From NCBI GenBank assembly GCA_043827405.1, contig JBDRPD010000034.1, positions 1 to 64,000 on the forward strand: a stretch of DNA of 64,000 bases. The letters run 5' to 3'. The stretch's first letter is position 1, and each line of letters begins with the position of its first letter. A program made the position numbers and the translations under genes. The notes below the pieces were generated by a model that made no database searches, was not told the origin of the DNA, and worked only from the letters and a program-made list of their open reading frames with translations. Origin of the DNA: Elusimicrobiota bacterium (GTDB lineage: Bacteria; Elusimicrobiota; Elusimicrobia; UBA1565). Shown here piece by piece: positions 18,225 through 32,663 of the stretch.

Positions 18225-19109
18225 TCAGCCTACGGGATTCCTGCCCCGCATTTTTATGGCTGATTGGTTGAGAAGCTTTGCGAACTCAATATTGTGGGCA
18301 TGGCCGGGCCGTACGGCTTCGATATGCATCTTGAACAGCGAGCGGCCGATCAGCGTTAAATCGCCGATCAGGTCCAGCACCTTATGGCGGACAAACTCGT
18401 CTTTGTAGCGCAGTCCTTCGGCGTTGGTGTGGATCTCTTCGCGACCGATTACAATCGCGTTCTCCAGGCTGCCGCCCTGCGCCAGGCCCTGGGATTTTAG
18501 AAAGGCGATCTCATGCTCGAAACAGAAGGTGCGCGCGGGAGCGAGCTCGGTCGCGTAGCTCTTGGTGTCTACCGTGATGGTCATCTCCACCCTCGGGACC
18601 AGCGGGTGGTCGTGGATCAAGGTCGCGTCGACCTCGAAGTTTTCGGCGGGCCGGGCGCGGTAGAAGGAGCCTTTGTCCTCGTAGGTGATCTCCTCGGGGA
18701 TCACCAGGTAGCGCTTGGGCTCATTGGGGTAGCGGCGCAGGCCGGCGCCCATCAGCGCCTTGAAGAACGGGAGCGCGGAGCCGTCCATGATCGGCGGCTC
18801 GTTGGCGGTCACCAGAATGTCGCAGTTGTCGATGCCGATGCCCGTCAGCGCGGAAAGGACGTGCTCGACGGTGTGGATGCGCGCCTCGTTGAGGCCGATG
18901 TTGGTGCCGCGGACCGTTGCCACGACGAAGCCGAGGCGCGCGGGGATTACCGGGCAGTCCGGCAGGTCTGGGCGAAAGAAGCGGATGCCCGTATTCGCCG
19001 GCGCCGGACGGAAGGTCAGGATGGAGGCGTTGCCGGTATGCAGGCCGATCCCCTCCAGCGTCACCTCTTTGTCGATCGTCGTCTGCGCGTCGATGTTATC
19101 CTTTGGCAT
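18225..19109 (-). CDS. lpxC: UDP-3-O-acyl-GlcNAc deacetylase
   Basis: QTTI...[55 protein letters not shown]. Confidence 0.97.
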
Positions 19110-20151
19110 GGGCCGTCTCCTTGCCGAGCATCTTTTGGGCTTTTTTCACAAAGCCGTATATGTCGGGGAGCTTCGACATGATCGCCTGCAGCTTCATGGC
19201 TTCCCGGTGCGGGCGCGCCGGCGAACCGAACAATATTTCCCCGGGCTTGACGTCTCCCATGACGCCCGTCTGGGCAGTTATAATGGCGCCGTCCCCGATC
19301 TTTAGGTGGCCGACGATGCCCGCCTGGCCGGCGAATGTCACCTGGTCGCCGACCAGCGTCGAACCCGCGATCCCCACTTGGGAAATTATCAGGTTGTTGC
19401 GGCCGATCGTCACGTTGTGGGCGATCTGCACCAGGTTGTCGATTTTGGTGCCGGCGCCGATGCGGGTTGCGCCGGTCGCCGCCCGGTCGATGGTTACGTT
19501 GGAGCCGATCTCGACGTCGTTTTCAATAACGACGCGGCCGACCTGATGGACCTTGCGATGCGTGCCGGTTTTGCGGTCGGTGTCGTAGCCGTAGCCCTCG
19601 CCGCCGATGATGGTGCCGGGATGGATGATAACGTTATCGCCGAGCTCGCAGAAGTCGCCGATAACGACCTGCGGATGCAGCACGCAGTTCTTGCCGATGC
19701 GGGCGTTGTAGCCGATGAAGCACTGCGGCGAGATGCGCGTGTTGTCGCCGATCAGCGTTCTTCCTCTAACCACGGAAAATGCGCCGACGCTGACGTTTTT
19801 GCCGAGGCGCGCTTCAAAATGGATATCGGCTTTGGCGCTAAGCACAACGGCCTCTTTGGGCCATTTTTCCTCGTAGATTTTCTTCAGGACCTGGGCGTAG
19901 GCCCACTTGGGCGAATCAGTATAGAGGCGGTTCCTTGGTCCGCCGGCCATATCATTTTTTGCCGCAAGGGGCAGGAGGATGGCTCCCGCGCGGCTGGCAA
20001 TGGCCTGCGCGGTGTACTTCGGATTTTCCAGGAAGGAGATGTCCTCCGCTTCGGCCTCCGTCACGCCGGCGGCGTTTTTGATTTCATATTGCGGGTCGCC
20101 GTCGAGTTCGGCCCCCGTGATTTCAGCGATTTCTCCCAGCGTTATTTTCAT
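19096..20151 (-). CDS. lpxD: UDP-3-O-(3-hydroxyacyl)glucosamine N-acyltransferase
   Basis: Hexapeptide repeats, [40 protein letters not shown]. Confidence 0.96.
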
Positions 20152-21101
20152 AGCGAGAACCCCTTGAGTTTCTGCAGCACTTTCGCGGTTAGATCCACGG
20201 TCGTCTGTCCGTAGAGAATCTGGTTCTTATCCACAACGATGCTGACGCCGTTCTCCTGCGCGACTTCGCGCACCGCGGTGTAGATCTTGCCCAGTAGGAT
20301 TTCCGTACGACGGCCTTCTATTTCAATTAGATTTTTCTCCACCGACGACTGGTATTCGGCGAAAGCGGCTTCTTTCTGTTCCAGCTCCGACCGCGCGGCG
20401 TTGATTTTTCCGTCAAGGTCGTCGAGCAGGCGCGCCCGTATATGGGTGGGCGTTTCCTCGGCCGCGACGACCTTCTCCTCGTCTCCCATCGGGTCATCGA
20501 CGCCCGGGATGTTTACCGGGCGATTTCCGCTTTTATCCGATATGCCCGGAAGGCCCCGCAGTTCTTCCGGTTCGAGGCGGGGGGCGGCGTCGGCCAGCGC
20601 GGCGGCGGTCGAGGCGGCGATGGCCGCCGTTGGCGTGCCCGTGGAGGGGACGCTCTCCGTCGCTAAAGTGCCGGTCGAAACGACGGGGGCCTCGACGGTC
20701 GTGGTGGTGGATGCCGTCGGGGCGCGCGCCGGCGCTTCCACGGGAGGGAGCGCCTCATCCTCGGCGGGAGCGGCCGGCTTCACCGGCGCGGGCAGCGACG
20801 CTTTTTCCAGCAGGTCGCGCTCCATCTTCATCCGCGACAGCTCCGCCCGCAGGGTAATCATCTCGCCCCGGCGAAGGTTTACCTGTTCTTCCGCTTGGCG
20901 AACGATCGCTTTGTAGGTTTGCTTCGCTTTGTGCGTCTCCGGGTAGAGGCGGAAAATCTTCTGGATGTCGACGAAGCCGATATTGCCGCGCTCCGCCTTG
21001 TTCTCCTCAAGGCTGATCTCGAGCGCGCGCGCCGACATCCCGGCGGCGCCCAGGAGCAGGGCGCAGGCGGCGAGCGCCCGCAGTTTGGTGAAGGTTCTCA
21101 T
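20148..21101 (-). CDS. skp: OmpH/Skp periplasmic chaperone with a long low-complexity insertion
   Basis: Signal peptide, [10 protein letters not shown] at the N-terminus and VA.ENG.SIVVDK..ILYG...DLT..VL at the C-terminus. Located between bamA and lpxD. Confidence 0.85.
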
Positions 21102-21102
21102 A

Positions 21103-23964
21103 TTAGAACAGGCTCCCGATTCCGAAGTTGATTTGCGATTTTTCTTCGCCGGGGCGATGCTGGAAGCCGTAGCCCCAGTCCAGGCGGATCGGGAACGCGG
21201 GGGTGACGAAGCGAATCCCGAAGCCGATGTCCGTCTTGAGGTCCCGCTCCCCCTTGCCGATGGTGAAGCGGGCGGAGCGCATATTCTCCCACGAGCCGCC
21301 CAGATCGAAGAACGTGACGAACTTTACGATTGTCTTGCGCCGTTCCCGGGCCAGCGGGAAGCCCAGCTCGATGTTGAATACGTCGTAGATCTTGCCGCCG
21401 TTGCGGGCGCCGACCTCGCCGGTCGAGGAATAGCCGCGCAGCGTGTCTTGGCCGCCGATGAAGAACCGCTCGAACACCGGAACCTCCCGAGTCTCATTGA
21501 ACGGCGTGATGTAGGAGGCGCGGTTGGAGGCGGTAAAGACCAGCGGATAGTCCCCGACTTCAAACAGGGTCTTATGGTAAGCGCTGGAGACGTACGGCTT
21601 GAAGAAGTGGATATCGCCCTGGAATATGCCGCCGGCGATGGAGCTGCCAATCGAATGCCGCGTCCCGCGGGCGGGATCCCAGATATTGTCGCGCGTGTCG
21701 CGGGCGAATTCGACGCCGACGGAGGACTGCACGCTGGTCCCTTCCGAGAGGGCGTTTTGGAACTGGCTCTGCACGCCCGTTAGGGAGATTTTCTGGAAGG
21801 TGTAGCTCATGTTTAGGCGGTACTTGTCGTCCTGGAAGCGCGGGCCGACGCGTACGGAGCCGCCCGTCCGCTTGCTGGTGAACGCGGAGTTGGAGCCCTC
21901 GAACGGGGAGATGCGCCGCGTACTGAAGGCGTCAAAGCCCAGGCTGACCGGTTTGTCGAGGATCCAGGGGAGGGTGTAGCCGAGCGTGAAGTCATTGACG
22001 CGCCGGCCGAACGACCATGACGCGTTGGCGCGGTGGGCGCGCCCCCACATGTTGAGGTGCTGGAGCGACAGCGTGCCGATTAGGCCGTCCAGGGACGAGA
22101 AGCCGGCGCCCGCGGTAAGCATGCCGGGCTTGCCCTCGACGACGCCGAAGGTCAGGTCGACAAGGTCCGGGTCAAAGGGGCTCTGGACGTCTAGTGAAAC
22201 ATCGTCGATGAAGCCGAGGTTGCGGATGCGCTCCTGGCTCTTGCGGATCTTTGAGACGGAGAACGGCATGCCCGGCCGGATGACCAGTTCGCGCTTGAAT
22301 ACGAAGGTTTTGGTGGCGCGGTTGCCCTCCACGTCGGTGTGGTCGACATAGGCGGTATTGCCTTCCACGATTTCGAAATGGACGTCCATGAGGCCGGTTT
22401 CCGCATTAAAGGTTCGGGTCGGATCGATTTCGGTTCGCAGGCGGCCCTTCTCGGCATACAGCTCGCGCAGGCTTTGGATGGTGAAGTCGAATTTTTCCTG
22501 ATTGAAGATTTTCTTGCGTTTGTAGTCGACCGCCTTGGCGAGCTCGGTGGAGGCATAGATGCTGTGGCCGTTGAAGGTTGTATCGCCGAAACTATAGAGC
22601 TTGCCTTCCGTCAGGGAGATGTCGATATGGATCTCGGTCTGGGCCTCGTTGAAAGTGATGGAGCTCGAGTCCAGCGTGTAGTCCAGGTGGCCCCGGTTCT
22701 TGTAGAACGTCTGTATTTTTTCCAGGTCTGTTTTGAACTTCTCCTGCGAGAAGATGTCGGCGCTGAACCACTTCGGCCGGTTCTCCATCTGCTTAACGAC
22801 CTTCTTTTCCTTGAACGACTCGACGCCGTGGATCCGGACTTTTTTGATCTTGGCCTTGGGGCCTTCTTCAATGAGGTAGGTGATATCCGTCTTCCAGGTT
22901 TCGGTCGACAGCTCGTCGCGGGTGTCGACCCGGGCGCGGTGGAAGCCCTTCTTCCGGTACAGCTCGAGTATCTTTTCGGCGTCGTCGCGCAGCTTCGCGC
23001 GGTCAAAGGGGTCCTTCTCGCGCAGGGTCAGCTCGTCTCGAATGCGGCCCTTGGAAAGCTTGTCGCGTCCCTCGAAGCTGATTTTTTGGATAAGCGGACG
23101 CTCCGTTACGATGAAGGTCAGGCGGATTTGGTGGCGGGAAGGGGAGGCTGACGCGAAGTGGGCCGGAACCTCCCGGTTGGGGAGCGCCGTAATGTCGGTG
23201 ACCACGCGGTCGAACTTGCCGAGCTGCATGATGTTTTCGTAGTCGTTGTCCAGGTCGCCGCGGTCGTAGAGGTCTCCTTCGCGCGCGTTGATCTGCCGGC
23301 GTACAACCTTGACCTTGGCGTGCCGCAGGCCTTGCAGGACGACCTCTCCCAGCACCCATGGAGGCTCGGGGATCTCTGGTTCGGCGGCGCCCAAAGTCTC
23401 CAGCGCCTGCTTCTCCGCGTCATCGGCGGCGGCGGGCGTCGGCAGGGATCCCGTAACCGGGGGGGGCGCGCCGGGAACCGGCGAGGCGCTTTGCTGCGGC
23501 TGGCGGGTCCTTTCGTCGAGGCGAATATCGATACGCAGAGTTGTGCTGGAGAGTTCTATCCTGCGGATGGCGGCGGAGGTGAATAGTCCGGAGCCGAGCA
23601 GCGCCGACAGGTCCTCCGACTCTTGAGTTCGGGTGTAGGGCGCCCACTGCTTCGCCTGTATTAGATCGCGGACCTGCCTCTCGAGCACGGTTTTGAGTCC
23701 GATGATTTGGATTTGCGCGACGACGGGGGCGACCCCGACGTTAACCGGTTTGGGCCTTGCGGCCGCCGCGGATTCGCCCGCGGGCGCCGGTTGGGCCGGG
23801 ATGGTCCGGGTTCCGTCCGGAAATTTACCGTCTGCCAGATCCTGCAGTGCTTGCAAGGCAGAATCGGCTTCGCCTGCGCCGCCGGCCTCTGCGGCCGAGG
23901 CGGCGGGAGCAATGGTAAGTGCCGAAAAAATAAGAGAAACAGCTAGAAGCAGGGGCAGGTTCAC
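21103..23964 (-). CDS. bamA: Outer membrane protein assembly factor BamA with N-terminal extension
   Basis: Repeated POTRA units, GN..TK..V.KRE, RFFIGG..TLRGY, G.GIR..TP..PIRLDWG, C-terminal F. Confidence 0.95.
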   Translation of the reverse strand: MNLPLLLAVSLIFSALTIAPAASAAEAGGAGEADSALQALQDLADGKFPDGTRTIPAQPAPAGESAAAARPKPVNVGVAPVVAQIQIIGLKTVLERQVRDLIQAKQWAPYTRTQESEDLSALLGSGLFTSAAIRRIELSSTTLRIDIRLDERTRQPQQSASPVPGAPPPVTGSLPTPAAADDAEKQALETLGAAEPEIPEPPWVLGEVVLQGLRHAKVKVVRRQINAREGDLYDRGDLDNDYENIMQLGKFDRVVTDITALPNREVPAHFASASPSRHQIRLTFIVTERPLIQKISFEGRDKLSKGRIRDELTLREKDPFDRAKLRDDAEKILELYRKKGFHRARVDTRDELSTETWKTDITYLIEEGPKAKIKKVRIHGVESFKEKKVVKQMENRPKWFSADIFSQEKFKTDLEKIQTFYKNRGHLDYTLDSSSITFNEAQTEIHIDISLTEGKLYSFGDTTFNGHSIYASTELAKAVDYKRKKIFNQEKFDFTIQSLRELYAEKGRLRTEIDPTRTFNAETGLMDVHFEIVEGNTAYVDHTDVEGNRATKTFVFKRELVIRPGMPFSVSKIRKSQERIRNLGFIDDVSLDVQSPFDPDLVDLTFGVVEGKPGMLTAGAGFSSLDGLIGTLSLQHLNMWGRAHRANASWSFGRRVNDFTLGYTLPWILDKPVSLGFDAFSTRRISPFEGSNSAFTSKRTGGSVRVGPRFQDDKYRLNMSYTFQKISLTGVQSQFQNALSEGTSVQSSVGVEFARDTRDNIWDPARGTRHSIGSSIAGGIFQGDIHFFKPYVSSAYHKTLFEVGDYPLVFTASNRASYITPFNETREVPVFERFFIGGQDTLRGYSSTGEVGARNGGKIYDVFNIELGFPLARERRKTIVKFVTFFDLGGSWENMRSARFTIGKGERDLKTDIGFGIRFVTPAFPIRLDWGYGFQHRPGEEKSQINFGIGSLF

Positions 23965-23982
23965 TGGAGTTTGACCAAGAGA

Positions 23983-24011
23983 AGTATATCAAATCAACGT
24001 CGGGCGGGCAA
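23983..24011 (-). promoter_or_regulatory. Putative sigma70 promoter of the bamA-lpx operon
   Basis: Reverse strand TTGCCC(24011-24006)-N17-TATACT(23988-23983) with a TGn extended -10, 18 nt before GTG23964. Confidence 0.6.
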
Positions 24012-24074
24012 TAAATACCGGGCGAGCTGCCGTACGCGCGCGGGCGACTGTACACATATACCCTAAATAGGAAC

Positions 24075-24587
24075 TTAGCTTGCGGGCTGCAGCATGAATG
24101 ACGGTATCTGCAGAGAGCCGGCGACCTTGCCCAGCAGGCTGCCGGAAAGGTCGATGACTTGGATTCCTTTTATGGGTGCGGTGGGCTGTATGCCGTGGGC
24201 TTCGATCGGCCGGAAGCCGAGCCGGGAGAAATACTCCGGATGGCCGATGACGAAAATAAGCTCGATGCCGAGGCCGCGGCAGCGGTCCAGCCCGTGCCGG
24301 ATCAGCCGCTCGCCGACCCCTTGCCGCTGGCGTTCGGGAACTACGCCGATCGTCGTCAGCAGCGCGCTCGCCTGGCCGCCGACGTGGGTGCGGCAGTATA
24401 AGGCGTAGCCGACGATTTGGTTGTCGTCGGCGGCGACGATCGAAAGCGCGGGATGGAAATGCTCGGAGGAGTCCCGGGCGGCATGTACGAGCTTCGCCTC
24501 GTCGTCGCGGCCGTACGCCGCCTGCAGAATGGCGGTGGCGATGGGAATTTCTTGCGCGGTTTCTGCGCGGATGATTATGCTGCTCAT
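24075..24587 (-). CDS. GNAT family N-acetyltransferase (YhbS-like)
   Basis: IR.E...I......A.....EA.LV...R, LSIVA....IVG, V.PE.QRQGVG.RLI, VIG.PEYF.R.GF. Confidence 0.9.
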   Translation of the reverse strand: MSSIIIRAETAQEIPIATAILQAAYGRDDEAKLVHAARDSSEHFHPALSIVAADDNQIVGYALYCRTHVGGQASALLTTIGVVPERQRQGVGERLIRHGLDRCRGLGIELIFVIGHPEYFSRLGFRPIEAHGIQPTAPIKGIQVIDLSGSLLGKVAGSLQIPSFMLQPAS

Positions 24588-26005
24588 GTGCGGGCCCTGC
24601 GGCGTCGGGTCGGAGTGTTTCCCGACAGCTTGCGTGGTCGGGGGCTCGGGGCCGCTACCGGTGTGCCCTTTTCCGCATCATAATAGTCGAGTCCGGAATG
24701 ATCGATGACCTCCTCGCCCATCAGCAGGCGCAGGGTATTCTGCAGCTTGAGGTGCTGTACAAAGAGGTTGTGTTCCGGCTGCAAGTCTTCCCGGCACTGC
24801 GGCGATTTAAAGAAAAAGGACAGCCACTCCTGGATGCCCTTAAGCTCCGCGCGCTTCGCGAGGTCAAGGAAAAGCGCCAGGTCCAGGACGATCGGAGCGG
24901 CGAGTATCGAGTCGCGGCACAGGAAGTTGATCTTGATCTGCATCGGCATGTCCAGCCAGCCGAAGATGTCGATATTGTCCCAGCCTTCCTTGGCATCTCC
25001 GCGCGGGGGATAGTAGTCGATGCGGACTTTGTGCGAGTAGTTGCCGTACAGGTCGGGGTACAGGCGGGGTTCAAGCATGGAGTCGAGCACCGACATCTTG
25101 CTCTTTTCCTTGGTCTTGAACGAGCCGGGATCGTCGAGGACTTCGCCGTCGCGGTTGCCGAGGATGTTCGTGGAGTACCAGCCGTTGAGCCCCAGCATGC
25201 GCGCCTGGATGCCGGGCGTGACCACGGTTTTCATCCAGGTTTGACCCGTTTTGAAGTCCTTGCCGCCGATCGGGCTGCCGGTTTGTTCCGCCAGCTCGAC
25301 CAGCGCCGGGATGTCGGCGCTCAGGTTGGGCGCGCCGTTGGCGTAGGGAATGCCGAGCTTGATCGCGGCATAGGCGTAGATCATCGACGGGGGGATTTCC
25401 GGGGCGCTTTCCTTGAGGCCGCGCTCAAAAGCCGCCAGGCTGCGGTGCGCCTTGGTGCGCGGCGGCAGGATTTCGGTGGAGCCGCACCAGATCATGACGA
25501 CGCGCTCGAGTCCGTTAACACGTTTAAACTCTTCGATATCGTCGATCACCTGCTGGGCGTACTGCCATTTCGTCTTCGCCTTCTTGATGTACGTCCCCTT
25601 GAGATTCTTGATGAAGCGCTGATCGAAAACTCCGCACATCGGCTTGATGGCGGCGAGCTGGGGCTGGACCGCTTTGAGTCGTTCGGGCGGCAGTACGCCG
25701 GCCTTAAGCGCCGCCTCGTGTACGTTCTCGGGGAAAATATCCCAGCCGCCAAAGACGAGGTTTTCCGTTTTTTCCAGCGGCACGAAGTTGCGAATCAGCG
25801 GGCGGCGCCCCTCGTAGCGTTTGCCGAGGCGGATCGTTTGATTCTGTGATATGGAGCCGATGAGCCGGCCCATATTTTTCCGGTGCAGTGCGATGCCGGC
25901 GATGAAGGTGCTGGTGACGGCCCCCATGCCGGGGAGCAGCACGCCCAGCTTGCCCCGGCAGGCAGGAATCTTTTGGCTCTGGTTTCTGTTTTTATGACTA
26001 GACAT
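24584..26005 (-). CDS. ino1: myo-inositol-3-phosphate (1-phosphate) synthase
   Basis: LGVLLPGMGAV.STF, FGGWDI, WCGSTE, NGAPN, GKDFKTGQT, STNILGNRDG, YYPPRGD.KEGWD, RDSILAAP.VLDL, FFKSP. Confidence 0.95.
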   Translation of the reverse strand: MSSHKNRNQSQKIPACRGKLGVLLPGMGAVTSTFIAGIALHRKNMGRLIGSISQNQTIRLGKRYEGRRPLIRNFVPLEKTENLVFGGWDIFPENVHEAALKAGVLPPERLKAVQPQLAAIKPMCGVFDQRFIKNLKGTYIKKAKTKWQYAQQVIDDIEEFKRVNGLERVVMIWCGSTEILPPRTKAHRSLAAFERGLKESAPEIPPSMIYAYAAIKLGIPYANGAPNLSADIPALVELAEQTGSPIGGKDFKTGQTWMKTVVTPGIQARMLGLNGWYSTNILGNRDGEVLDDPGSFKTKEKSKMSVLDSMLEPRLYPDLYGNYSHKVRIDYYPPRGDAKEGWDNIDIFGWLDMPMQIKINFLCRDSILAAPIVLDLALFLDLAKRAELKGIQEWLSFFFKSPQCREDLQPEHNLFVQHLKLQNTLRLLMGEEVIDHSGLDYYDAEKGTPVAAPSPRPRKLSGNTPTRRRRART

Positions 26006-26036: not shown

Positions 26037-27950
26037 CTACATTTTATTCTTTTTCGACGAAAAGCGCAGTAAAATCAGGACGGCGAGAAAGAGCGGGCTG
26101 CCCAGGCCCGCGGCCCACAAGAACGGGATCGTTTTATTGCCCAGCGCGAGAACGACGAAAAGATAAATAAAGTCTCTCTGGGTCAGGAGGTGCTCGATCC
26201 TGGCGAGCCAGCGCGTTAGGCCGCGTCCCTGCGGGTCGGCGCCGCCGCCGGCGATGTCGTCGATACCCTGGAACAGCGGGCTGTCATCGTTGCGCCTTTC
26301 CGCCCGCTCGACGGAGTGCCGGTAGACGATCAGCGCGGAGGCGAGACTGCATATCGCGGCGATCGCGCCCAGAAGGAGGCACAGCGCGCCGCCGCCGGCA
26401 CGAAATTGTCCGATGCCGAGACAGCCAAAGAGCAGGAAGTGGACGATGTTGTCGCCCCAGAAGTCGATCTCGCCGCCGCGACGGCTCTCCTGAAAGCGCA
26501 GGCGCGCGAGTTCGCCGTCGCAGCCGTCGAGCAGGGTGTGCAGCCAGATAATGAGGGCGCCGGCCAGAGTAAATGCGTAGCCGCCGCCCGCGAGGATGAG
26601 CGCGCCGGCGGCGCCGACGGCGGCGCTGAAAATTGTCATGTCGTTGGGGGTGATGCGGGTGTTCAGCAGGCGCTGCGTGACGGCGAGCGAGACCCGGCGG
26701 TCAAAATTCCTGGCCATGAAGCTGTCCTGGGCTTTGCGGGCTTCCTTCAGCAGCCAGCGGACCGCGAGGCGCTTGTCGGTGACCTTGGACAGGCGGAAGA
26801 ATGAGCCCCTTGGCATGGCCTCGCTCTCGAAGCCCACATGATGCAGCGAGGGTTTCAGCGCGATTTGGACGACGCCGTAATGGTTGCCGTCCTGGTATGA
26901 GGTCGGGAGCTTGTGGAATGTGGTGAATAGTTCGCGCAGCGCTTCCAGGCGGATAAAGTGGTCGCCGGAGACGCTGGCATAGGGAGGTTCGCACTGCTCG
27001 TCCTCGTCGCTCTTGTCGGCGGAATATTCATCTTCCGCCCACTGGGCCCAACGCACGGCCAAATCCTTCGGCCAGCGGAGAGCCTTGACGGCCTTTTCCT
27101 TCAGGGGGTGCGTGGAGAGCCAGACCTCCCGGATGCCGGCGCGCGCCAGCGTGAACAGCTGGCGCTCGATGACTCGCATGCCGCCGATGTCCTCAAAGAG
27201 GAGGAAGCGATGATCGACCGACAGTACGGCGCGCGTGATCCGCTCGGTTTGCGGCGGCGGCTCGGCGGGCAGCTTCTCCTTGCTGAGATGCCGCTTCTGC
27301 TGCGGTAAATTCCTGGCGAAGTCGGCGATTGGATCCGGGGGGCGCACGCCGTCAAGGTTCTCCGACGGCGGCGGGCTCTCGGCGGGGGTAAGCGTCAGTG
27401 GCGCGTCGGCGGCGGGTGCGGCGGGCGCCGGAGCGGGCGCCGCGGCATCCTGGTAGATTTCAATTGGAGATTCGACGCCTTCAACGCGGTGCGTTCCGGC
27501 GTCTGAGAACGCATGGGCGACGCTCCCCTTGATGTGGTCGTGGACTTCGCGGGAGAGGCAGATGCCGCCCGGCCGCGCGGCGGTGCACAGGCTCTGCGCC
27601 ACGTGCACGCTGCTGCCGTAGACGTTTTGTCCTTCGACCACGACATCGCCCAGGTGGATGCCGACGCGGGCGTGCAGCAGATCACCAGGAGGCTTGCCGG
27701 AATTGTAGTCGGAAAGCAGGCGGTGGATGTCGACCGCGCATTGGGCGGCGTCGACGGCGCTGTCGAAGCTGTAGAGGCAGGTATCACCGAAGTCTTTGAG
27801 CAGGCGTCCCTTGTGTTTTTTCCCGGCGACGCCCAGGATCGTGCGGTGGCGACGGACGAGATCCAGCGCGAACTCCTCTCGCCCGCGCAGCAGGGTTTGG
27901 AAGTTTTGGATGTCGGAGCAGAGGACGGCGGCGAGGCGTCTAGTGGGCAT
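26037..27950 (-). CDS. Fusion: class III nucleotide-cyclase-like domain + degenerate nucleotidyltransferase-like domain + CDP-alcohol phosphotransferase
   Basis: Starts at ATG27950 (MPTRRLAAVLCSDI...KDFGD...RVGIHLGDV...ARPGGICLS). Pro-rich linker, then a GGMRVIERQLFTLARAGIREV middle domain, then ITPN..T and DGCDGELARL...S..G..ID...D (CDP-AP signature). Confidence 0.85.
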   Translation of the reverse strand: MPTRRLAAVLCSDIQNFQTLLRGREEFALDLVRRHRTILGVAGKKHKGRLLKDFGDTCLYSFDSAVDAAQCAVDIHRLLSDYNSGKPPGDLLHARVGIHLGDVVVEGQNVYGSSVHVAQSLCTAARPGGICLSREVHDHIKGSVAHAFSDAGTHRVEGVESPIEIYQDAAAPAPAPAAPAADAPLTLTPAESPPPSENLDGVRPPDPIADFARNLPQQKRHLSKEKLPAEPPPQTERITRAVLSVDHRFLLFEDIGGMRVIERQLFTLARAGIREVWLSTHPLKEKAVKALRWPKDLAVRWAQWAEDEYSADKSDEDEQCEPPYASVSGDHFIRLEALRELFTTFHKLPTSYQDGNHYGVVQIALKPSLHHVGFESEAMPRGSFFRLSKVTDKRLAVRWLLKEARKAQDSFMARNFDRRVSLAVTQRLLNTRITPNDMTIFSAAVGAAGALILAGGGYAFTLAGALIIWLHTLLDGCDGELARLRFQESRRGGEIDFWGDNIVHFLLFGCLGIGQFRAGGGALCLLLGAIAAICSLASALIVYRHSVERAERRNDDSPLFQGIDDIAGGGADPQGRGLTRWLARIEHLLTQRDFIYLFVVLALGNKTIPFLWAAGLGSPLFLAVLILLRFSSKKNKM

Positions 27951-28953
27951 GCTGGCGGTAGATGTTTTCGATGATGGAGACGCAATGCTCCGCCTCGCGG
28001 ATGTTGCGGCCGCGCCGCCGGGAATCGGCGACGGCGGCGCAAAAATCCTCCAGCATGGAGTGAAACCACTCCGGATGGGCGGAGCCGTGCGAGAGCGCTT
28101 CCGGGAAGACGAAAACATGCGGCGGGCGTCCGCCGCGCACCACGCGCAGGCGGTCGTCGAGAATCTCGATCGATCCCTCGCGCCCGCGCAGGACGCCCCA
28201 GTGGCCGCGGCGCGCGGCGTTCCAGGTGAGATGTACGATCGCGCTGGCGCGGGGAAACTCGATAAGGCAGGTGGCCTCGCTGTCGGTGCCCCCGCCGTTG
28301 GCGCCGCTGAATTTGAGCACGCCGGAGCTGCGGCGCGGAATCGCGTCGAGCAGCCAGGCGACGAGATAGAAGGCGTGCCAGCCATGGTCGATCAGGATGC
28401 CGCCGCCCGAGAGCTTCTTGTCGGTTCGCCAATTGCCCTTGGCGGCCGGGCCCGCGACCACGGAGGGCTGGCTGCGCAGCACATGCCACTCCAGGTGCTG
28501 GACGGCGCCGATGGCGCCGTCGTCAAGCAGCGAGCGAAGCTTCTGAAACAGCGGCGCGTACTTCCAGTTATGGATGGTAAACAAGGCGCGGCCGCGCTTC
28601 TTGGCGGTGTTTTTGAGCGTCGCAAAGTCCTTGCGGCTCAGCACCAGGGGCTTTTCGCACAGCACGTGCCTATCCGCCCTTAGGGCCGCGAGACACAGTT
28701 CGGCATGCAGGTGCGGGGGGGTGGCGATGTCGACGAAGTCGAGCTCCCGCTCTTCGCGCAGCAGCCGGTCGCAGTCCGGATAGGTGCGTATCCCGGGGAA
28801 ATGCTTCTCCGCCGCGGCCCGCCGCTCGGCGCTGCCGTCGGCGGCGGCCGTGATGGAGACGCCGCGCAGCTTCTTCCAGGCCGGGGCATGCGCATTTTCC
28901 GCGACCGCGCCGAAGCCGATGATGGCGCCCTTAAGCGCCGCCGCTTCAGCCAT
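27940..28953 (-). CDS. Gfo/Idh/MocA family oxidoreductase (inositol dehydrogenase-like)
   Basis: AIIGFGAVA..AH.P, DFVDIATPP.LH, VLCEKP, GGGILIDHGWH. Confidence 0.9.
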   Translation of the reverse strand: MAEAAALKGAIIGFGAVAENAHAPAWKKLRGVSITAAADGSAERRAAAEKHFPGIRTYPDCDRLLREERELDFVDIATPPHLHAELCLAALRADRHVLCEKPLVLSRKDFATLKNTAKKRGRALFTIHNWKYAPLFQKLRSLLDDGAIGAVQHLEWHVLRSQPSVVAGPAAKGNWRTDKKLSGGGILIDHGWHAFYLVAWLLDAIPRRSSGVLKFSGANGGGTDSEATCLIEFPRASAIVHLTWNAARRGHWGVLRGREGSIEILDDRLRVVRGGRPPHVFVFPEALSHGSAHPEWFHSMLEDFCAAVADSRRRGRNIREAEHCVSIIENIYRQHAH

Positions 28954-30298
28954 TAAGCTCTCCCGAGACGGCCGCGAAAACTTCCTCGAGGATGTCCAGG
29001 CCGCGGTCCGCCTGCTCGCGGGTGATATTGAGCGGAGGGTTGATGCGGATGACCGGGGAGTAGGACATCGTCATAAGCCCCCGGCGCAGCGCCTCATCGA
29101 ATATCCTGCGGCAGGCGGTTTTTGCCAGGGGCTTTTTCGTGGCGCGGTCCTGCACCAGCTCGACGCCGATCAGCAGGCCTTGGCCGCGCACGTCGCCGAT
29201 AAACGCGAAGCGGTCCTGCAGTTTCTTGAGCCGCGCCAGCATGTGCGCGCCGAGGTCGCGGCTGTTGTCCACCAGCTTTTCATTCTTGAGGATTTTTAAG
29301 GCGGCGTTGCATGCGGCAGCGGCGAGAGGGTTGCCGCCGTAGCTCGAGGACGACCCGGAAGGGTCGGCGAAGGGCTTGGCAGCGGCGATGGCGCTTGGCG
29401 CGATGAGACCGCTGACCGGGAAGCCGCCCGCGATGCCCTTGCCGACGGTCATAATGTCCGGCTGCACGCCCTCGTGCTGACAGCCGAACCATTTCCCGGT
29501 GCGGCCGAAGCCGGTGATCATCTCATCGGCGATAAGCAGTCCGCCGTGCTCGTGCGCGATGTCGCGCAGTCCGGTTAGGAACCCGGGAGGAGGCTGTACG
29601 TTGCCGGCCGTCCCCTGGATCGGCTCGACGATGATGCCGGCGAGGTTGTTGGTCGTGGAGCGGCGGATCATGGTGCGCAAAAACTCGAGGCAGTGCGCGG
29701 CGCAGTCATGCTCGCCTTCCGTCCCGAAGGGGCAGCGGTAGGGGTTCGGGAACGGCGCGAGGTAGCGTCCGGGGGTGAGCGGCCCCAGACCATGCTTGAA
29801 GTTGTCGCCGAGCAGTCCCAGGACGCCGCCGGTTTTGCCGTGAAAACCGCCCCAGAAGCCGATGAATTCCGCATGGCGGGTATGGCTTATCGCCAGCCGG
29901 AAAGCGGCTTCCACTGCCTCTGAGCCTCCGGAGTAAAGCTGGAAGCGGTCCAGGCCCTTGGGAAGCACTTCCATGAGGCCGCGGCCGAATTCAACGCGGT
30001 TTTTGGTGGTGAAGCTGCCGACGTTGATGGCGGCCGCCTGTTCGGCGATGGCCCGGGCGTAGTCCGGATGGCCGTGGCCGATCGAGGCGACGCAGACGCC
30101 GGCCACGAAATCGATGTATTCCTTGCCGTCTAGATCATAGAACAGCGCCCCCCGGCCCTTGTCCAGCGTGATTTGGGAGAACAGCGCGATCGACTGCAGG
30201 CCGGGCGTCATGTAATTCTGTTCCTCTTCGAACCATTGTCGGGACAGCGGTCCGGTAATGGGTTCTTGGGAGGGAGATTTTTTTGTGGAGCTTGTCAT
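28946..30298 (-). CDS. Class III PLP-dependent aminotransferase
   Basis: D.DGKEYIDF, SGGSEAVE.A, GGFHGKT, IVEPIQG, IADEMITGFGRTG, PDIMTVGKG (PLP Lys). Start ATG30298 follows GAGGA. Confidence 0.93.
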   Translation of the reverse strand: MTSSTKKSPSQEPITGPLSRQWFEEEQNYMTPGLQSIALFSQITLDKGRGALFYDLDGKEYIDFVAGVCVASIGHGHPDYARAIAEQAAAINVGSFTTKNRVEFGRGLMEVLPKGLDRFQLYSGGSEAVEAAFRLAISHTRHAEFIGFWGGFHGKTGGVLGLLGDNFKHGLGPLTPGRYLAPFPNPYRCPFGTEGEHDCAAHCLEFLRTMIRRSTTNNLAGIIVEPIQGTAGNVQPPPGFLTGLRDIAHEHGGLLIADEMITGFGRTGKWFGCQHEGVQPDIMTVGKGIAGGFPVSGLIAPSAIAAAKPFADPSGSSSSYGGNPLAAAACNAALKILKNEKLVDNSRDLGAHMLARLKKLQDRFAFIGDVRGQGLLIGVELVQDRATKKPLAKTACRRIFDEALRRGLMTMSYSPVIRINPPLNITREQADRGLDILEEVFAAVSGELNG

Positions 30299-31152
30299 GT
30301 TGTCCTCTTGGTTTTGGGGAGGGCGAGCGCATGCTTCAGGCGTTTCTGCAGCTGCCAGGAAATCTGCACCGCCGCTTCTTTGCGGACCAGGGCGAAGCTG
30401 GGCCAGGAGTTGAAATCGAGTACCGTGATCGTTCCGTCCGGGGCGATGATGGCGTCGCCGCCGAAAATCTGCAGCGCCAGCGCCGTGGCGCCGGCCGCCG
30501 CCTGCGTGGCGAGCGAATCGACGTCGAATACGTGCCGGCACGCGCGGACCGCGTCGTGATAGAACCAGGTGAACCAGTGGCCGGGTCCGGCGCCGTAGAA
30601 CTTGATGAGATCGCCGTCGATGTGGGGCTGGATGATCCAGTGCGTAATCTCCCGCTTTTGGAAATCGGACACAATCTCACGCGCCCGCTCCCAGGTCTCG
30701 GCGCGCACAACGTCGTGGTCGCAGGTATTGTGCACGTCGCCTCGTTTGAGCCACCAGCCTTGGGGCGCCGGGAAGGCCGGCGGGTCGCCGGCTCCCGCCT
30801 CAACGGTGCGGACCTCGGTATCCGGGAAGCGGACCTCGCCGAGCGCCTGCATCGCGGGCGCCAGATGCGTTCGGTAGCAGTTGAGTACGGCGCGCGGGGG
30901 GTTCGCCCAGAGGGCGGTAGATCCTTCGGATTCCCGCAGCAGGCGCATAATGCGGGGATAGGATTCGCACATGGGGATGATCAGGTCCCAGCCGCGCAGG
31001 TCCAGGCCGTCGGCCTCCTCGGGCGTCACCGCCCGAGTCTTGAAGCCCATGGGCGCGAGCTGTTCAAGCACGGCTTGCAGGATCAGCGCGTCGTCGCTTT
31101 CGCGGTTGGGGGAGTTCGTTACTTCACGGAAAATGCCTAAGCACCGTAGCAT
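30295..31152 (-). CDS. ATP-grasp fold enzyme (ITPK1/RimK-like)
   Basis: Start ATG31152 (MLRCLGIFREVTNSPNRESDD). Motifs NPP.AV.NC.R, WLKRGDVH, IIQPHIDGDLIKFY, IFGGDAI, VLDFNSWPSF. Confidence 0.75.
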   Translation of the reverse strand: MLRCLGIFREVTNSPNRESDDALILQAVLEQLAPMGFKTRAVTPEEADGLDLRGWDLIIPMCESYPRIMRLLRESEGSTALWANPPRAVLNCYRTHLAPAMQALGEVRFPDTEVRTVEAGAGDPPAFPAPQGWWLKRGDVHNTCDHDVVRAETWERAREIVSDFQKREITHWIIQPHIDGDLIKFYGAGPGHWFTWFYHDAVRACRHVFDVDSLATQAAAGATALALQIFGGDAIIAPDGTITVLDFNSWPSFALVRKEAAVQISWQLQKRLKHALALPKTKRTT

Positions 31153-31877
31153 GAGATCACCTTTTCGGCCGCGGAAAGATCCTCCGGCCGGTCGACGTCG
31201 ATAGTATCCTGCAGGAGGACGCCGCGCACGACGGCGCCGCTGCGGATGAGATCGGTCCAATAGCTGCGCAGCTTGCCGTGCGCCGCCGCGGCGGGCATCG
31301 CCTCCGGCAAGGCTCGGGTTAAGGCGTATAGCCCGCAGGTTACGGATAGCCGCTGTTCAGGAGAGACGTCTTCGCCCAGGGCGCAAATGTTTCCGGCGGC
31401 GTCCCGCTGCGCCCATAGCGGCTTTTCATCTTCGACGAAGCCGGTCAGCGCGAGCGCGGCGGCGGGGGACGGCGCGCCGCCGGTTGCCGGGGCGAGCGCT
31501 TCGCCGGAGAAGCGCGCGATGTCGGCGGGGCGGATCAGCGCGTCCACCGTGCTGATCATGAAGTCGCCCGAATCCTGCGCCAGGGTTCGCGAGACGAGCC
31601 GGAAGCTCTCCCAGGAAGAGGCCGTGTCCCGGCGCAGGAAGCGCCAGTGAAGATCCGCGAAGTTTTCTTCCAGGTAGGTCCGCACGGCGTCGCCGGAGGT
31701 GTTGAGCAGGATCGTGATGTGCCGGATGCCGGCGCTGCGGAGGTTGGCCACCACCCAGTACACCAACGGTTTTCCCCGCACCGGCACCAGCGGCTTGGGA
31801 GTGTCGGGATGCGCGGCGGACAGGCGCGAGCCGAGTCCGGCGGCGATAATGCCGGCGCGCGCCAGGGGCGCGGTCAT
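31137..31877 (-). CDS. Nucleotidyltransferase (NTP_transferase; IPCT/sugar-phosphate type)
   Basis: AGIIAAGLGSRL...PKPLV.V.GKPL, STVD, DEKPL, IDVD.PEDL..A. Confidence 0.88.
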   Translation of the reverse strand: MTAPLARAGIIAAGLGSRLSAAHPDTPKPLVPVRGKPLVYWVVANLRSAGIRHITILLNTSGDAVRTYLEENFADLHWRFLRRDTASSWESFRLVSRTLAQDSGDFMISTVDALIRPADIARFSGEALAPATGGAPSPAAALALTGFVEDEKPLWAQRDAAGNICALGEDVSPEQRLSVTCGLYALTRALPEAMPAAAAHGKLRSYWTDLIRSGAVVRGVLLQDTIDVDRPEDLSAAEKVISCYGA

Positions 31878-32575
31878 GCGGCAGCCTCTTTGGGAAGCAG
31901 CAGGTCTTCCAGATCGGACAGCGCGTCAAGAATGGTCGCCTGCGCACAGCAGGCGTCCTTGCGATCACGTTCTCCGCGGACCCAGGCATGCGGCATGCCG
32001 AGCGCTTCCGCTCCGCGCATATCCCGCGGGACGGAATCGCCGACCATTAGGGCCGCTTCCGGAGCGACGCCCAGCAGGTCCGTGGCGTGCAGGAACAGTT
32101 TCTTGTCCGGCTTCAGAGCGCCGACTTTCTCGGAGTCCGCTACGGCATCGAACAGGTCGGCGAGGCCTTCATGCTCAAGGATAGAATCGAGATTGCCGTA
32201 GAAATTTGAAACGATGCCGAGGCGAAAGCGACGACGAAGGCGCTCGAGCAGTGGTCGATTAAGCTGGAGGGCCGTGCGCGACTCTTCCACGAAGCGGCGG
32301 GTGATCTTCTCAAGGTAGGTGCCGCGTGCCATATTTAGGGCGTCCAATACGCAGCCGGCCTGCAGCCGGACCGTCTCTTCTAAGGAAAGGCCGGCAAGAG
32401 CAAAGCGGGCGGGCAGGTTGTCGTCCGCATCATAGAAGGCGCGGTCGAATGTTTCGGGAGCGGCCGGGCATCCGCTATCAGCATAAATCCGCCGAAAACG
32501 CTCGCGCCAATGGAGTCCATTGGCATCTAGAGTCCCGCCAAAATCGAACAATACGGCCTGTATAGTTTGTGTCAT
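31874..32575 (-). CDS. HAD family hydrolase (phosphatase)
   Basis: VLFDFGGTLD, IVSNFYGN, KPD..LF, MVGDS...DM.GA..LGM. Start ATG32575. Confidence 0.9.
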   Translation of the reverse strand: MTQTIQAVLFDFGGTLDANGLHWRERFRRIYADSGCPAAPETFDRAFYDADDNLPARFALAGLSLEETVRLQAGCVLDALNMARGTYLEKITRRFVEESRTALQLNRPLLERLRRRFRLGIVSNFYGNLDSILEHEGLADLFDAVADSEKVGALKPDKKLFLHATDLLGVAPEAALMVGDSVPRDMRGAEALGMPHAWVRGERDRKDACCAQATILDALSDLEDLLLPKEAAA

Positions 32576-32634
32576 AAACGGGGGCGCCGGAGGGAATGAG
32601 CAACTCCGATGCATTTTACTACAAAAAATAGGCC

Positions 32635-32663
32635 TTGACAAACATTCACAATCCTGTTAAAAC
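32635..32663 (+). promoter_or_regulatory. Putative sigma70 promoter of the pilM operon
   Basis: Perfect TTGACA (32635-32640), 17-nt spacer, TG-t-TAAAAC (32658-32663, an imperfect -10) in an AT-rich divergent intergenic region. Confidence 0.6.

Follow-up and report, generated by a model that had tools for sequence, protein, structure and literature searches.

An ATP-grasp family of bacterial inositol-lipid gene clusters: a candidate (amino)inositol head-group kinase

What reaction is catalyzed by an ATP-grasp enzyme whose gene lies in one operon with ino1, the gene of myo-inositol-3-phosphate synthase? The question is raised by a 64,000-nucleotide stretch of an Elusimicrobiota bacterium (GenBank assembly GCA_043827405.1, contig JBDRPD010000034.1, positions 1 to 64,000), hereafter the window, in which an initial annotation had proposed an inositol (poly)phosphate kinase of the ITPK1 type working directly downstream of Ino1. 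On balance we favor another reading, namely that the ATP-grasp protein is probably a kinase that takes a single step, phosphorylating (amino)inositol or an inositol monophosphate and thereby feeding a cytidine diphosphate (CDP)-inositol lipid route, and is not a polyphosphate kinase; the family to which it belongs is widespread in bacteria and travels with inositol membrane-lipid genes.

The open reading frame, running from 31152 to 30295 on the minus strand, is translated without a stop into 285 amino acids and has an AGGTG element 7 nt 5′ of its ATG. The motifs first quoted for it are indeed present: LKRGDVHNTCDHDV holds K136, H141 and H146, IIQPHIDGDLIKFY holds K184, and these are accompanied by FGGD (D233) and VLDFNSWPSF (D246 and N248). 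The AlphaFold model (predicted local distance difference test, pLDDT, 96.9) displays a three-domain ATP-grasp fold with matches of Z up to 21.4 over ~250 residues at a root-mean-square deviation of ~3 Å, so that the modeled structure places the protein in the ATP-grasp superfamily, as had been proposed. The gene and the sites on which the argument turns are the following:

30295..31152, minus strand: ATP-grasp gene, 285 amino acids, candidate (amino)inositol head-group kinase
30964..30966, minus strand: residue E63, a Glu/Gln position where aminotransferase and Gfo dehydrogenase genes are present in the cluster and an Arg position where they are absent
30712..30747, minus strand: motif K136-R-G-D-x-H141...D147, of which K136, R137, D139, H141 and D147 are conserved and H146 is not
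30595..30603, minus strand: K184-F-Y186, to which K-F-Y of AtITPK4 is aligned, RimK having R-C-F
30394..30417, minus strand: D246-x-N248-x-W-P-S-F, to which D-x-N-x-x-P of ITPKs is aligned, RimK/PsnB having E-x-N

Neither Pfam nor NCBIfam holds a family for this protein, and a literature search, with most subscription papers outside its reach, returned no description of it. Relatives nonetheless number 2,050 among 3,567 candidates, and a separate grouping of the family at 50% identity gives 1,089 clusters, of which 368 have E ≤ 1e-30; this bears out the early guess that the family is widespread; the closest relatives are from Elusimicrobiota, and no phage homologue was found. An alignment of 122 sequences near the query in length (the query, four close relatives and 117 representatives from 150 listed, with fusions and fragments excluded) reveals as invariant or nearly so R9, S14, D21, M61, R94, K136, D147, K184, Y186, R257, G231-G232-D233, D246, N248 and W250-P-S-F. 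D246 and N248 are present in 122/122 sequences, D233, K184 and Y186 each in 121/122. As to the N-terminal K18/K59 phosphate contacts and the basic pocket of ITPKs, the conserved arginines of the family are R9, R94, R137 and R257. The K-x4-H-x4-H spacing that had drawn attention to the window protein is genuine there; as a family signature it was rejected, being found in 4/122 representatives, with column 146 mostly E, G or D and His in 38 of 161 locus sequences.

The genes that surround the ATP-grasp gene provide the main indication of its role. In the window the operon reads, in order, HAD, NTP transferase, ATP-grasp, class-III aminotransferase, Gfo dehydrogenase, CDP-alcohol phosphotransferase, ino1 and GNAT, as follows:

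32613..32641, minus strand: sigma70-like promoter candidate upstream of the operon, from a 10/12 consensus match only
31874..32572, minus strand: HAD-family hydrolase, predicted to be a phosphatase acting on cyclitol or lipid phosphates; start set at ATG 32572, the ORF finder beginning at TTG 32641
31137..31877, minus strand: NTP transferase, predicted to act as cytidylyltransferase for the head group
28946..30298, minus strand: class-III PLP aminotransferase, joined to the ATP-grasp gene by an ATGA overlap
27940..28953, minus strand: Gfo/Idh/MocA NAD dehydrogenase, its match to the IolG model lying under the cut-off
26037..27950, minus strand: CDP-alcohol phosphotransferase, extended N-terminally by a cyclase-like domain; AF2299 and IPCT/DIPPS are the structures that it matches most closely
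24584..26005, minus strand: ino1, myo-inositol-3-phosphate synthase
24075..24587, minus strand: GNAT acetyltransferase, accessory, present in 7/59 well-flanked loci

ATGA overlaps join HAD to the NTP transferase, ATP-grasp to the aminotransferase and ino1 to GNAT, and three other junctions overlap by 8–16 bp. The tight coupling claimed for this operon is thus confirmed, six of its seven junctions overlapping and the seventh being a gap of just 31 bp between the CDP-alcohol phosphotransferase and ino1; the two genes of interest are not adjacent, ino1 lying 4.3 kb downstream of the ATP-grasp gene with three genes between.

The same company is kept elsewhere. In the 59 of 160 loci that have at least 6 kb on both sides, the HAD gene is found in all 59, the NTP transferase and the CDP-alcohol phosphotransferase in 56 each, ino1 in 48, the aminotransferase together with Gfo in 45 and an LPG-synthase-like gene in 12; the remaining 14 have neither aminotransferase nor Gfo, so that no amine acceptor is encoded nearby. 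Just 3 of the 160 loci, short or scattered, are without any partner gene. Furthermore, 41 of 43 long homologues carry the Pfam domain of an operon partner, fused to the NTP transferase in 35 cases, the CDP-alcohol phosphotransferase in three, HAD in three and the aminotransferase in two, with overlaps between these classes. The neighbors, a DIPPS/AF2299-like CDP-alcohol phosphotransferase, an NTP transferase, a HAD and often an LPG-synthase-like gene, speak for a lipid head group and, in the window, for one with an aminated ring.

The link to ino1 seen in the window is likewise general within Elusimicrobiota, in which co-occurrence was assessed. Among 76 genomes of the window's order, all of them kin, 67 have both the family and ino1, eight have neither, one has the family only and none has ino1 only; in a phylum sample of 201 the family occurs in 24, ino1 in 28 and both in 23. 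A P0001 search of the five ino1-only genomes gave no match; four of their loci were fetched and the neighbors scanned for three, a CDP-alcohol phosphotransferase being found beside ino1 in two of the three, with PgpA as well in one, an arrangement corresponding to the BT-like route. The family therefore goes with the NTP-transferase route. The locus L169:6899-12744 of genome G119 holds ino1, a CDP-alcohol phosphotransferase, PgpA, an LPG-synthase-like gene and an MMPL transporter with no member of the ATP-grasp family, and is a BT-like inositol-lipid route in Elusimicrobiota. In genome G018, 97% complete, the locus L168:6964-12754 keeps the remaining operon, joined straight to bamA; ino1 is absent from this locus, and two queries of the genome gave no match, making it possible that this organism uses imported inositol.

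A second line of evidence comes from a single alignment column. The 160 locus sequences were classed as amino (aminotransferase and Gfo both present; 118, plus the window), plain (both amination genes absent; 32) or unclassified (10). Column 63 holds Glu or Gln in 119/119 amino sequences and Arg in 30 of the 32 plain ones and, with the two discordant rows set aside, it alone of 264 columns separates amino (119) from plain (30), column 10 coming close to full separation. At column 63 alone the plain sequences L089, L155 and L163 match the main plain clade and differ from their amino neighbors. A quick tree of 84 rows needs three label changes, two of which are forced by starred branches, and the one aminotransferase fusion that could be tested has Gln at 63, as predicted. 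As far as sequences can tell, this suggests that the substrate of the enzyme changes when the ring is aminated and, since residue 63 tracks the amination genes, that a cyclitol is the substrate.

From these data we infer the kinase chemistry, the substrate, the order of the steps and the lipid product of the following scheme. Ino1 would make myo-inositol 3-phosphate (Ins3P), from which the HAD hydrolase would remove the phosphate; in the amino-type clusters, the window included, Gfo would oxidize a ring hydroxyl that the aminotransferase would then aminate, the ring of the window being probably oxidized and aminated before phosphorylation. The ATP-grasp enzyme would phosphorylate (amino)inositol, or Ins3P in the plain clusters, on the hydroxyl that is to form the linkage, after which the NTP transferase would form CDP-cyclitol and the CDP-alcohol phosphotransferase would pass this to a lipid alcohol.

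How far does the protein itself resemble inositol phosphate kinases? A C-terminal profile (residues 130–266, built from 46 of the 160 loci) finds AtITPK4 at 6.8e-5, four human ITPK1 sequences at 2e-3 and PsnB at 0.042, RimK being absent from the list at E ≤ 10, so that in sequence the C-terminal half is nearer to ITPKs than to RimK. Whole-length alignments show K-F-Y and D-x-N-x-x-P-S-F to be common to the family and AtITPK4, RimK having R-C-F and E-V-N; K184 occupies the position of the RimK Arg, and the FRSN large loop of RimK has no conserved counterpart. The structure-based identity of the C-terminal half is likewise highest for AtITPK4 (22%), followed by human ITPK1 (21%). Two points made at the outset, an ITPK-like substrate lysine and D-x-N in place of the E-x-N of RimK (found in 0/122 representatives), are therefore confirmed, as are the human motifs LFGID and IDINAFPGY, which appear in the printed alignment. 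Human ITPK1 also has the K/H/H and QNFINH stretches, and column 146 is presumed to be in register with human H167, five residues after H162. The K-x-Y of the family also matches Lys198/Tyr200 of ZmITPK1, named as phosphate contacts in the accessible text of PMC7614388.

The ITPKs (human ITPK1, 2QB5/2Q7D; AtITPK4, 7PUP; EhITPK1, 1Z2N; PF05770) and the Lokiarchaeal LcIKA-D thus share with the family the ATP-grasp fold, K-x-Y at K199, the G-x-D and D-x-N-x-x-P metal motifs and a genomic link to inositol-3-phosphate synthase. Unlike them, the family falls below the Pfam cut-off, has its own invariant R9, S14, D21, M61, D147, H177 and W250 and is tied to lipid head-group genes, in the window also to amination genes. 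The ATP-grasp protein gave no match in a PF05770 search, PF05770 does not pass its curated cut-off in any of 41 related genomes (0/41), and matches at E ≤ 0.01 occur in 5/122 representatives, the best being 2.5e-4. Among 12 related genomes with a PF05770 match at E ≤ 1, this lies inside the family gene in seven, elsewhere in four, the genome of the window being one of the latter, and is unchecked in one. Of the most conserved inositol phosphate contacts of ITPKs, given as H167, K199 and R212 in the accessible text of PMC6900528, K199 alone has a conserved family counterpart, K184; at the R212 position (K199+13) the Lys of AtITPK4 aligns to columns 198–200, which hold no conserved basic residue. 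Judged by its sequence, the protein may work like an ITPK, although it fails membership of that family, contrary to what had been supposed.

Motifs of this kind do not by themselves mean inositol, since they are carried by unrelated ATP-grasp triplets of the mannitol-dehydrogenase type that also pass PF05770; for this reason D-x-N was rejected as a mark specific to inositol clusters. These conserved clusters, in which an MFS transporter gene and a mannitol-dehydrogenase-like gene accompany the three ATP-grasp genes, are located at L164:4593-9612, L165:5800-11016 and L166:6970-11914 (genomes G090, G119 and G208). Elusimicrobiota triplets have D-x-N or E-x-N with P-x-Y/F, D-x-N with K/R-L-Y being seen as well; in L164, which has no ino1 nearby, all three ATP-grasp genes lie above the PF05770 cut-off and are thus, by Pfam, more ITPK-like than the family gene.

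Several observations weigh against the kinase. The whole-length profile places PsnB first (2.4e-8), followed by AtITPK4 (9.1e-7), four RimK entries and human ITPK1 (4e-4). With the whole model, VIA gives Z 21.0–21.4 for RimK/ArgX/LysX vs 19.5–19.8 for human ITPK1; Ddl heads the Foldseek lists for both the whole protein, where maize ITPK1 is second, and the C-terminal half, and in the model of the latter, built from relative L001, VanA/DdlA reach Z 10.0 vs 7.8–8.4 for ITPKs. Among named Atlas clusters the nearest are for the most part RimK-like, an Asgard ITPK cluster coming at rank 11 with a score of 0.95. The direct coupling to the aminotransferase in most amino loci also fits amide ligation. 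As to residue 63, the contrast was picked post hoc and rests on two to three independent switches, and the two Glu-bearing “plain” rows, L072 (scattered context) and L156 (a 2.9-kb contig nested among amino rows), were dropped after inspection. Finally, the Rhodothermus IPCT route, as cited in the accessible text of PMC4587543, is described without a kinase, so that the need for one is something that we infer.

The foremost rival is an ATP-dependent amide or ester ligase of the RimK/LysX/PsnB type, which would join a carboxylate onto amino-inositol or another pathway acceptor. Such ligases have the best or tied global fold scores (Z 19–21.4), and the class-III aminotransferase adjoins the gene in 118 of the 160 classified locus sequences and is fused to it in two cases. 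In the structural comparison from which the initial annotation had expected a decision, ITPKs lie within ~2 Z units of the ligases and never rank first, RimK/ArgX/LysX, Ddl and VanA/DdlA tying or leading; fold searches of the models, the C-terminal half included, do not separate kinase from ligase. (AmpC β-lactamase matches of a single-sequence PDB search, otherwise noise, were rejected for fold mismatch.) The ligase is nevertheless disfavored, and we regard it as unlikely, because clusters in which no aminotransferase is encoded retain the same set of active-site residues; an inositol lipid, phosphoinositol dihydroceramide (PI-DHC), is produced by B. vulgatus and P. veroralis according to the accessible text of PMC9246714. 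Furthermore, the RimK/LysX marks, E-x-N and an Arg at the K184 position, are replaced in the family by D-x-N and Lys, and no peptide or carrier-protein gene was found among the tested neighbors of the family gene.

Still less probable, in our estimate, is a relocation of phosphate from D-3 to D-1 with ADP/ATP as carrier, by the ATP-grasp enzyme alone or with HAD, that would yield a eukaryote-like 1-D-linked phosphatidylinositol. ITPKs are reversible phosphotransferases (PMC10765375, accessible text), a HAD gene is constantly at hand and Arg63 of the plain clusters could bind the Ins3P phosphate; on the other hand, the literature examined gave no account of the stereochemistry with which alternative-route lipids are linked, and with Ins(1,3)P2 as intermediate the proposal overlaps that of the single-step kinase.

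A true ITPK1-type enzyme carrying Ins3P processively to soluble InsP2–InsP5/6 is highly improbable: the C-terminal profile ranks ITPKs first, weak PF05770 matches fall inside the family gene in some genomes and, in the accessible text of PMC6900528, human ITPK1 takes Ins3P as far as IP5 and the ITPK genes of Lokiarchaea lie beside IPS genes, but the polyphosphate contacts are lost, the gene stays below the PF05770 cut-off everywhere tested and, mostly in single copy, it sits constantly beside a phosphatase and lipid-type transferases, so that the polyphosphate synthesis first envisaged finds no support.

The single-step kinase can be set against the inositol-lipid routes already described. A putative “alternative” cluster of Bacteroides vulgatus/Prevotella, with CDP-inositol chemistry and no kinase step, has been presented by Heaver et al. 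2022 (PMC9246714), in the accessible text of which the pathway itself is unconfirmed. The window has all four of its elements, ino1 (MIPS), NTP transferase, CDP-alcohol phosphotransferase and HAD, and differs in adding aminotransferase, Gfo and GNAT. In records of B. finegoldii, P. distasonis and P. nigrescens the family gene lies between the NTP transferase and the phosphotransferase, as the early suggestion of similar frames in Bacteroidetes inositol-lipid clusters implied, and WP_007749659.1 of B. finegoldii and WP_122115030.1 of P. distasonis are plain members with Arg63; the family is the unassigned gene of this alternative cluster, and BVU_RS13100 would be a member judging from tag spacing. 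“ATP-grasp” gives no match in the accessible text and eight supplementary files of PMC9246714, where no role is assigned to the family gene. In the IPCT/DIPPS (Archaeoglobus, 4MND) and IPCT/BEPIS (Rhodothermus) routes it is Ins3P itself that is activated; the window phosphotransferase is closest to AF2299 (1e-20) and IPCT/DIPPS (3e-15), and its NTP transferase matches IPCT weakly (2XME, E 0.043). T. forsythia, without ino1, makes inositol ceramides from imported inositol with no kinase candidate in the accessible text of PMC4587543; it is not among the 120 listed of 6,313 matches of a P. distasonis query, which speaks neither for nor against its having the family. In the accessible texts of PMC8024741 and bioRxiv 10.64898/2026.05.08.723234 prokaryotic ITPK is mentioned in archaea only, and that of PMC13384419 gives no match for bacteria.

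The alternative route, still unconfirmed, is common among the Prevotella, Parabacteroides and Bacteroides of the human gut, and its published scheme omits the ATP-grasp gene, though this is a constant member, often fused to other enzymes. If the protein is a kinase, the published pathway changes, gaining a step now missing, and a candidate bacterial inositol kinase, of a kind not found in T. forsythia in the accessible text of PMC4587543, becomes available, with a bearing on the origin of ITPK-type chemistry; the residue-63 contrast, in turn, points to an amino-inositol lipid and offers a direct test of substrate. Quite tentatively, the family might be the bacterial inositol/amino-inositol kinase that has been missing, and a branch related to the ITPKs, in which residue 63 (Arg vs Glu/Gln), a proposed pocket residue, acts as substrate switch. 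It would select inositol(-phosphate) in the Bacteroidota of the gut, and amino-inositol in Elusimicrobiota and in environmental bacteria, whose operon would make an undescribed phosphatidyl-aminoinositol lipid. Were this true, strains without ino1 (G018 and possibly Tannerella forsythia) could build such lipids from imported inositol.

Some features of the clusters remain to be recorded. In L028, L075 and L077 ino1 directly follows Gfo, with no CDP-alcohol phosphotransferase in the fetched flank, and in the plain clusters L125, L130, L131, L138, L141, L154 and L159 unidentified genes occupy 1.5–3.7 kb between ATP-grasp and CDP-alcohol phosphotransferase. In the window the CDP-alcohol phosphotransferase carries at its N-terminus a class-III nucleotide-cyclase-like domain (27423-27950, minus strand), a fusion found in only one of 80 related Elusimicrobiota loci (L004); against the usual consensus, the catalytic motif of this domain looks degenerate. 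The operon itself continues directly (19096-24587, minus strand) into an outer-membrane biogenesis block consisting of bamA, a skp/ompH-like gene and lpxD.

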